From IMG/VR virus record IMGVR_UViG_3300037455_000543, positions 283,136 to 347,135 of that record: a stretch of 64,000 nt of DNA; one strand, written 5' to 3'. Positions 42,226 through 43,043 of the stretch are shown here, one piece after another; the stretch's first letter is position 1; each line of letters starts with the position of its first letter. The notes under the pieces were generated by a model. The model saw only the letters and a program-made list of their open reading frames with translations, was not told where the DNA came from and did not search any database. This DNA comes from a virus. Its lineage: Duplodnaviria; Heunggongvirae; Uroviricota; Caudoviricetes. The translations under genes were made by a program, and so were the position numbers.

Positions 42226-42302
42226 TCCGTAAGGAGAGATTCGAACTCCCACACACGAGGATATAAGCCCCATCGCCTGATACCATCGGACATTGCTTAC
42301 GG
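42226..42302 (-). tRNA. tRNA-Ile(UAU)
   Basis: CCGTAAG/CTTACGG acceptor; CT-TAT-AT loop; GTTCGAATC; irregular D arm. Confidence 0.7.
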
Positions 42303-42310
42303 GAAGTTCG

Positions 42311-42384
42311 TGGACAGACTCGGACTTGAACCGAGAACCGGCGGGTTATGAGTCCGCTGCTCTAACCGATTGAGCTATCTGTCC
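42311..42384 (-). tRNA. tRNA(CAU), Ile2 or elongator Met
   Basis: GGACAGATAGCTCAATCGGTTAGAGC...CTCATAA...GGTTCAAGTCC. Confidence 0.85.
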
Positions 42385-42389
42385 AATAG

Positions 42390-42465
42390 TGGACCTGGTG
42401 GGGCTCGAACCCACGACCCATCGATTAAAAGTCGATTGCGCTAAATACCACTGCGCCACAAGTCC
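42390..42465 (-). tRNA. tRNA-Lys(UUU)
   Basis: ATCGA-CTTTTAA-TCGAT; canonical T arm. Confidence 0.88.
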
Positions 42466-42502
42466 ATTTAGTTTGATTATACTGGCTAGCTCTGCCAGTT
42501 AG

Positions 42503-42589
42503 TTGAGGTGGCTGGATTCGAACCAGCGCTGTGTCATTAACCGTACAGGATTCAAAGTCCCGCGCCATCGCCAACTAGGCCACACCTCA
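42503..42589 (-). tRNA. tRNA-Gln(UUG) with long variable region
   Basis: U1-A72; CGGGA-CTTTGAA-TCCTG; ~18-nt variable region. Confidence 0.75.
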
Positions 42590-42597
42590 AAAATTCG

Positions 42598-42671
42598 TAC
42601 CCTAGCCAGGATTCGAACCTGGGACCCTCTGCTTAGAAGGCAGATGCTCTATCCAGCTGAGCTACTAGGGC
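42598..42671 (-). tRNA. tRNA-Arg(UCU)
   Basis: GCCCTAGTAGCTCAGCTGGATAGAGC..TCTGC-CTTCTAA-GCAGA. Confidence 0.92.
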
Positions 42672-42673
42672 AT

Positions 42674-42704
42674 AAAAAATGTTCCCGTGTTTGCACACAG
42701 GAAC
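42674..42704 (-). terminator. Attenuator terminator directly upstream of tRNA-Arg
   Basis: GTTCCTGTGT-GCAA-ACACGGGAAC-A-TTTTTT. Confidence 0.8.
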
Positions 42705-42737
42705 CAAAAATCATTCAGAGTTCAGTGAACAAACAGA

Positions 42738-42794
42738 TCAAAACCAAGGTGAACCTTGTTTTCTTATTCTTATTTGTTTTCTTATACTCATCAT
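42738..42794 (-). CDS. Leader peptide MMSIRKQIRIRKQGSPWF (putative tRNA-operon attenuator)
   Basis: ATG ATG AGT ATA AGA AAA CAA ATA AGA ATA AGA AAA CAA GGT TCA CCT TGG TTT TGA; TATAAATA at 42800-42807; early -10 at 42843-42848. Confidence 0.75.
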   Translation of the reverse strand: MMSIRKQIRIRKQGSPWF

Positions 42795-43043
42795 ATTTTT
42801 ATTTATAGGAGAAAATTTTTGTTTTTCGTTTTTACGTTGTATAATATAGTAAATTATTTCATCTTTGTAAACCCCTAATTATATTCTTCACTGTCCAGGA
42901 TAGATTGGGCGATTTCTTCACAGTTGCAGCCGTTATCCCAGTCTTCGTAGATAGATCCAGCATACGATGCGATCAGATCATCTGCCTGGTCAACGGAACA
43001 ACCCTTTCGGACCAAATGGTCTTTAACGATTTCTTTTACTTCT

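Follow-up and report, generated by a model that had tools for sequence, protein, structure and literature searches.

A short open reading frame (ORF) and an intrinsic terminator stand between the promoter and the five tRNA genes of an operon in a large phage, which raises the question of whether a ribosome on the short ORF decides if the tRNAs are made. The operon lies in the window, i.e. the whole 64,000-nt stretch of DNA that was analysed, which corresponds to bases 283136-347135 of a 424,163-bp genome with direct terminal repeats. The source is a complete T4-like phage from the rumen. Its genome has a GC content of 35%, carries 55-60 tRNA genes and a tmRNA, and encodes a gp23-type capsid, RtcB and NAD salvage enzymes. 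TilS was not found in the phage genome, nor was an RNA polymerase beta subunit or a phage RNA polymerase found in the 424 kb. No cultured relative was found either, the top capsid matches being about 31-33%. As no CRISPR link was found, we infer the host, with Fibrobacter as the probable one. Over about 340 nt, the phage tmRNA shares 73-74% identity with Fibrobacteraceae tmRNAs, and it had no match in any of five, possibly incomplete, control genomes. A 26-nt stretch of the operon's CAU tRNA is present in many Fibrobacter genomes, and also in Chlamydiae and others. Host searches via NAPRTase and via the Fib_succ_major domain gave no result, and a 34-nt match in a Fibrobacteraceae genome was rejected as a CRISPR spacer, being a coding repeat.

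The operon is read on the minus strand and is laid out as follows.

42843-42871, minus strand: sigma70-type early promoter (-35 at 42871-42866, 17-nt spacer, -10 at 42848-42843)
42800-42807, minus strand: T4-late-type motif TATAAATA, 5 nt ahead of the ATG
42738-42794, minus strand: leader ORF, 18 codons, without Shine-Dalgarno sequence
42756-42785, minus strand: control codons 4-13, also forming segment 1 of the predicted 1:2 hairpin
42745-42758, minus strand: five-pair hairpin atop the 1:2 structure, candidate pause hairpin
42719-42735, minus strand: segment 2, with alternative pairings predicted by folding
42674-42704, minus strand: intrinsic terminator (3:4), 10-pair stem, GCAA loop, U6
42597-42671, minus strand: tRNA-Arg(UCU), reads AGA; single copy in the genome
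42502-42589, minus strand: tRNA-Gln(UUG), reads CAA; single copy in the genome
42389-42465, minus strand: tRNA-Lys(UUU), reads AAA; single copy in the genome
42310-42384, minus strand: CAU tRNA, probably Ile2; would read ATA after lysidine modification by host TilS
42226-42302, minus strand: tRNA-Ile(UAU), reads ATA; single copy in the genome
42191-42216, minus strand: operon-closing terminator; the next promoter begins at 42189

The preliminary description of this DNA had proposed that the leader is fed by an early promoter, with a -10 box at 42843, and by a late motif at 42800, and both were found there. The start from the early promoter is predicted near 42836; its pattern occurs 58 times in the genome and is conserved in relatives of the operon. 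The late motif TATAAATA, retained upstream of the leader in L014 and G001, would yield a near-leaderless mRNA for the leader ORF. Since 28 long ORFs of the phage begin 4-5 nt past the same motif, near-leaderless initiation appears to be normal late in infection. The leader lacks a Shine-Dalgarno sequence, whereas its six sister leaders (below) have one, so that its translation from the early transcript is uncertain.

The ten consecutive codons formerly reported in the leader are present (three ATA, three AGA, two AAA and two CAA), and the tRNAs said to read them, Arg-UCU, Gln-UUG, Lys-UUU and Ile-UAU, were all located directly downstream. This run is the sole one that long in the six frames of the 424-kb genome, the runner-up having 7 codons, and 10 of the 17 leader codons match tRNAs of the cluster against a background of 9% (binomial p=5e-7). 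The identity of the CAU tRNA had been left between Ile2 and Met. It is most likely Ile2 and not Met: of the two Fibrobacter CAU tRNAs, one is 81% identical to it and the other, elongator-like one is unlike it; three further CAU tRNAs of the phage are of the Met type. The gene is dispensable, as relatives with Ile-UAU are often devoid of it. The tRNA-Gln(UUG) at 42502-42589 is an unusual Gln tRNA in that its variable arm is long, and several phage Leu tRNAs are, conversely, short.

The arrangement is repeated within the genome, where seven leader-terminator-tRNA units were recognized, each with a promoter. The six sister units consist of a promoter, a leader of 20-37 codons, a gap of 24-33 nt, a terminator and the tRNAs.

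Genome position 10787: sister unit with Trp, Leu and Ser-GCU
Genome position 12774: sister unit with Tyr, Cys, Met, Ile-GAU, Ser-NGA and Gln-CUG
Genome position 412652: sister unit with Asn, Pro, Thr, Met and Val
Genome position 415154: sister unit with Asn, Pro, Thr and Tyr
Genome position 420231: sister unit with Glu, Ala and Phe
Genome position 423102: sister unit with Asp, Arg-ACG, Lys-CUU, Gly and His

In a seven-by-seven table the actual leader-to-cluster pairing scores top of 5040 permutations. The match reaches isoacceptors, as the 42794-42738 leader uses AAA and the leader ahead of Lys-CUU has AAG four times and AAA never. Synonymous codons are likewise divided by cluster (CAA versus CAG, ATA versus ATT, AGY versus TCN): CAG is the only Gln codon in the Gln-CUG leader, ATT the only Ile codon in the Ile-GAU leader, the Ser-GCU leader has AGY only and the Ser-NGA leader TCN only, while AGA in the 42794-42738 leader stands against mostly CGN in the leader of the Arg-ACG block. 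Because these leaders had been chosen with the clusters known, terminators were also scanned blind to tRNAs. Among 175 terminators, six loci combined a short ORF with a ribosome-dependent switch and five of the six were tRNA leaders; two of the seven tRNA leaders were lost to the terminator filter. Elsewhere in the window (46886-46971, minus strand), a lone tRNA-Leu(UAA) comes with a promoter of its own and a Leu-rich ORF of 10 codons, and lacks a terminator; among all codons, TTA, which it reads, shows the strongest enrichment relative to the putative host.

The distribution of the codons by isoacceptor bears on what such a leader would sense. The trp, his, thr and ilv leaders act through amino-acid starvation, and the same attenuator might respond in this way to uncharged tRNA in general and not to particular tRNAs being lost or overloaded. 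Because isoacceptors are discharged unevenly upon starvation, some codon bias would be expected under this explanation too. However, making tRNA cannot remedy a lack of amino acids, synonymous codons divide each of Lys, Gln, Ile, Arg and Ser between two leaders, and CAG tracks tRNA-Gln(CUG) through three clusters, which makes starvation sensing a very unlikely account.

The terminator corresponds to its earlier description, with a stem at 42704-42681 closed by a GCAA loop and followed by A and U6 to 42674. Segment 2 had been proposed to have two exclusive partners, the control codons (1:2) and a sequence inside the terminator, the latter pairing being an antiterminator (2:3). Both pairings were found in the predicted folds, the second one with the 5' arm and loop of the terminator, but the antiterminator is longer than first thought, with 15 pairs joining 42735-42719 to 42705-42688. 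The 1:2 hairpin is predicted at -13.1 kcal/mol (z -2.15; 6 of 200 shuffles equally good), the antiterminator at -14.8 kcal/mol (z -4.3) and the terminator at -14.7 kcal/mol (z -6.1), the last two being mutually exclusive and of similar stability. The pairs of the five-pair hairpin are retained in 9 of 10 aligned sequences although its loop varies.

The influence of a ribosome was modelled by masked folds, in which the leader RNA was cut 4 nt short of the end of the terminator stem and the mask of the ribosome extended to 12 nt downstream of the A site; these are equilibrium snapshots, whose outcome varies with the cut point and with the footprint that is assumed. The predicted probability of terminator pairs is near 0 with the A site on codons 3-16 of the 42794-42738 leader and reaches 0.86 at codon 18, 0.97 at the stop and 0.96 without ribosome, a switch at the expected codon; with a 6-nt cut, i.e. 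2 nt less RNA, the value at the stop is only 0.38. All seven leaders are predicted to switch directly past their own control codons, with a terminator probability of about 0 on these codons and of 0.86-0.99 at the stop. The switch is also predicted for the diverged leaders L014 and G002; the homologous leader in G001 switches unevenly in the model, and a clean switch was not obtained for several relatives' leaders, which is partly a matter of terminator detection. The antiterminator duplexes of the seven leaders are stronger than those at 121 other terminators (p=2e-5). Taken alone, and scored without the 3' bases of the terminator, the 2:3 duplex of the 42794-42738 leader does not stand out (74 of 500 shuffles did as well), since its pairing largely involves the loop and 3' arm. 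These models suggest that the position of the ribosome decides the fold of the leader.

The mechanism that we propose is ribosome-mediated transcription attenuation serving as a feedback sensor of tRNA supply, and we consider it very probable. Host RNA polymerase would start at the early promoter or the late motif, with a ribosome following on the leader. A ribosome that moves quickly through AGA, AAA, CAA and ATA would reach the last codons and cover the start of segment 2, so that the terminator folds and transcription ends 3 nt ahead of tRNA-Arg. With no ribosome on the leader, the 1:2 hairpin would form and the terminator would fold too. A ribosome lingering on the control codons would instead cover segment 1, leaving segment 2 to capture the 5' arm and loop of the terminator; the antiterminated polymerase would then read into five tRNAs that decode exactly the control codons, and the stall would be relieved. 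The six sister units may act likewise for other tRNA blocks, in which case the phage would sample the greater part of the code one block at a time.

Leader codons could be followed across genomes in two near-complete relatives (capsid 94% and 91%), whose tRNA genes are reshuffled. tRNA-Gln(CUG) lies in the Tyr block in the phage genome itself (G000), in the Leu block in G001 and, in G002, in the block homologous to that of the window; the leader of the block that holds it has three, two and two CAG codons, respectively, and CAG is absent from the other leaders save for one leftover. In G001, Cys-GCA is now in the Leu block, the Leu leader has gained two Cys codons and the Tyr leader has lost its own; Ile-GAU and Val-GAC are now in the Glu/Ala/Phe block, whose leader has gained four Ile and two GTC codons; and Leu-CAG is missing, as is CTG. 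For the moved tRNAs, the cognate codon was present in 18/18 cells with the tRNA versus 10/21 without it (Fisher p=2e-4), the cells not being independent since they are drawn from three genomes; four anticodon calls of this table were corrected by hand and doubtful calls were dropped. The pairing of leaders with the clusters of their own genome equals the attainable maximum, with 48 ties of 7776. The co-variation of leader codons with the anticodons downstream, one of the checks proposed for the attenuator, appears to be the strongest evidence for it, and together with conservation and the masked folds it upholds the original reading of the locus as a leader-peptide attenuator. It also bears on a compositional coincidence, in which an A-rich stretch under selection for pairing with a U-rich segment would by chance spell A-rich codons and the terminator would merely end upstream transcription. 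The four codons are all A-rich, in a genome of 35% GC, but the codon run is unique, the terminator sits between the promoter and the tRNAs with no further promoter downstream of it, and six other leaders, with different and often GC-richer codons, match their own clusters. The uniqueness of the run and the cluster matching, with codons moving along with tRNA genes, largely refute this explanation, which is extremely unlikely.

Searches with the control codons, with the terminator or with the protein encoded upstream located relatives of the operon itself; 12 metagenome matches were found via the control codons, so that codon identity there is by construction, and the other anchors are independent. 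The neighbouring protein at 43044-43268 gave no viral relatives, and a scan of viral contigs with the promoter-to-terminator pattern gave no match. In the relatives, the ATG, the frame and the stop position of the leader (TGA, TAG or TAA) are kept. Behind the leader the order of the tRNAs varies and tRNA bodies have given way to unrelated ones, several different ones each for Lys-UUU and Ile-UAU, but the anticodon set persists. The L014 leader has an in-frame insertion of one CAA codon, and its altered segment 2 still pairs. In G001 the leader is rewritten (four AGA, three CAA, two AAA and two ATA), terminator and segment 2 are altered together, and the antiterminator is rebuilt from other sequence (-16.6). 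Among close relatives, 95% of cells of the switch are paired with one double change, which is not above shuffles; apart from this pair covariation, the leader appears to have every attenuator feature that sequence can test. In a distant phage (capsid 70%), one block of 17 tRNAs lies behind a 37-codon leader with all 14 amino acids of the block. Rumen metatranscriptome contigs contain the leader, one of 130 nt at 42682-42811 and another across the terminator; as assemblies, they are blind to ends, strand and level and may break at strain branches, and they were set aside as evidence.

Several tRNA genes of the relatives are of unusual structure. In L010, L012, L014, L015, L099, L107 and L110, the Ile-UAU, Arg-UCU, Ile-GAU and Arg-ACG genes are replaced by tRNA bodies whose D-arm is reduced or missing and whose variable arm is long, and which ARAGORN misses or miscalls. 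An Ile-UAU of G001 (L106:3587-3690) has a hairpin of about 27 nt within its anticodon loop. An ORF of about 160 codons lies between the first tRNA and the remaining block in L015 and L099, and the tRNA blocks of G002 are also split by ORF insertions of this kind.

The relatives also offer two signs of a once-functional system that has partly decayed, with tRNAs expressed via leak-through: an in-frame stop (TAA) as the ninth codon (codon 9) of the leader for Tyr/Cys/Ser in G002 and G003, and leaderless tRNA groups that have a promoter but no terminator-linked leader. Against such decay, the control codons are unchanged in operon relatives found via the neighbouring protein and not via the leader, while tRNA bodies turn over, and we regard it as exceedingly improbable. 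A candidate ochre suppressor in G002 was rejected, being a tRNA-Lys(UUU) with a long D-loop, so that the broken leader is not rescued. G002 and G003 (L110 and L114) are near-identical, and their TAA leader is a natural mutant of the system.

The leader peptides themselves could also matter, if the leader is translated and read-through is set by nascent-peptide arrest or by a phage antitermination protein, the codon match being secondary. The control stretch is strongly basic, a Pro-Trp-Phe motif is retained in the G000, L014 and G001 leaders, and an eighth conserved leader-terminator precedes protein genes. This explanation is nevertheless highly improbable, as the seven peptides have no common motif, the homologous G002 leader is devoid of Pro-Trp-Phe, and the synonymous choice follows the anticodons, which a peptide signal would not need.

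If transcription attenuation by tRNA supply is at work, the cause of the shortage has to be considered. The preliminary description had suggested cleavage of host tRNAs by anticodon nucleases such as PrrC and AriB, and overload of host tRNAs by the AT-rich phage would fit equally well; the two triggers are not mutually exclusive. Per thousand codons, the phage uses AGA 15.7, AAA 43.5, ATA 18.0 and CAA 14.8 times, versus 4.6, 19.0, 8.7 and 8.2, respectively, in an 80-kb Fibrobacter sample. Since sensors also stand before blocks of host-frequent codons, overload may not be the whole story. The tRNAs of the operon all require modification of position 34 in bacteria, and loss of this wobble modification is a possible third signal. 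On the side of cleavage are RtcB in the phage and the fast turnover of tRNA bodies, which looks like escape. PrrC cleaves tRNA-Lys and tRNA-Arg(UCU), RloC, when overexpressed, cleaves Glu, Lys, Arg and Gln tRNA species (PMC2610378), and AriB cleaves tRNA-Lys (PMC11464382); an AAA_13 protein with weak PrrC similarity occurs in 10 of 101 Fibrobacteraceae genomes. Nuclease-defeating phage tRNAs (T5 tRNA-Lys against PARIS, tRNA-Tyr against retron-Eco7, tRNA-Lys against PrrC) supply a likely purpose, the replacement of cleaved host tRNAs; these protective tRNAs are described as driven by strong promoters, attenuation being unmentioned (PMC11464382, PMC11555353). Tentatively, and with chances that we put a little short of even, the leaders could form a modular set of ribosome sensors, each serving one tRNA block, which would report the host tRNAs destroyed by an immune nuclease and induce only the matching replacements. 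If so, large phages would possess an inducible, target-reading counter-defence, in which sensor codons are rewritten upon tRNA reshuffling and the leaders list the codons failing during infection.

The features of the leader are those of the thrL, ilvL, ivbL, trpL, hisL and pheL attenuators, which likewise have a short leader ORF with a run of control codons and exclusive 1:2, 2:3 and 3:4 pairings, as well as an intrinsic terminator, a switch point near the stop and termination if untranslated. Here too, the short ORF lies between the promoter and the first regulated gene and the terminator precedes the first tRNA gene. Unlike the enterobacterial attenuators, the phage leaders are phage-encoded, control tRNA genes and not enzymes, match at the level of isoacceptors, and tile most of the code in seven units. 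The Rfam leader families (Trp, His, Thr, Leu), which precede biosynthetic enzymes and not five tRNA genes, gave no match to the leader with E up to 10 or at the gathering score. The pheST operon (pheM) of E. coli, an attenuator of phenylalanyl-tRNA synthetase, similarly closes a loop on the translation machinery, but its output is the synthetase for one amino acid, in a host. The his leader reports the decoding speed of any codon and the level of charged tRNA (PMC4046918). In T-box riboswitches, the state of a tRNA also sets the choice between terminator and antiterminator; T-boxes bind the tRNA itself and lie ahead of genes for synthetases, transport and biosynthesis (PMC2494555). A T-box (RF00230, with Stem I specifier loop and T-box bulge) was rejected, as there was no match in the phage genome and control genomes matched. 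The trn operon of Anabaena (L-array) is a reserve tRNA array whose expression rises 100-1000-fold under translational stress (PMC8421152); it differs in being one array under a protein repressor, TrcR, in a paper without mention of attenuation or a leader (PMC10272220). The leaderless polycysteine short ORFs of the mycobacterial 'Cys ribulon' are ribosome sensors at several operons (bioRxiv 10.1101/834739), but regulate translation initiation of protein genes and concern one amino acid. Cognate-codon leaders were not seen ahead of 40 tRNA genes of one Fibrobacter genome, in a crude test, and published attenuation of tRNA genes was not found in a literature search in which most subscription papers were outside reach.

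The regulation of phage tRNA genes has barely been described so far, and the reason why phages carry them has been debated for more than 50 years between codon compensation and host tRNA destruction (PMC10264068). Fused to a marker gene, the leaders would be built-in reporters of when and why a codon set runs short in infection, which would make both hypotheses directly testable. They would extend classical attenuation to tRNA genes, as a closed loop from tRNA supply to tRNA synthesis with isoacceptor resolution, and may offer a portable sensor of anticodon-nuclease activity.

Other RNA features were noticed in these genomes. The eighth leader-terminator mentioned above (L018:1828-1902, G000 116827), which is Ser-rich and has a predicted switch, is conserved in G001 and G002 and precedes protein genes and not tRNAs, in G000 a nicotinamidase and NAD salvage genes. 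Repeated terminator-like hairpins whose loop holds the -35 box of the next promoter occur at 38081-44566 of the window. A tRNA-like RNA at 37177-37289 (minus strand) reads as Thr-UGU and has an insertion of about 40 nt in the 5' strand of its anticodon stem, carrying the motif GTTCCTAT. The same insertion site and GTTCCTAT are found in tRNA-like genes of G000 (414887 and 420006), G001 and G002, and GTTCCTAT preceded by GCA also occurs in spacers of tRNA blocks and at about 37348 of the window. The insertion is possibly an intron or a processing signal, the phage having RtcB. Tandem tRNA-like RNAs of G001 (L106:6900-8400) have D and T arms and a tetraloop replacing the anticodon loop, and are possible decoys. 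Finally, a cow-rumen-2 RNA of Rfam lies at 54621-54727 (minus strand) of the window, over the gathering score.
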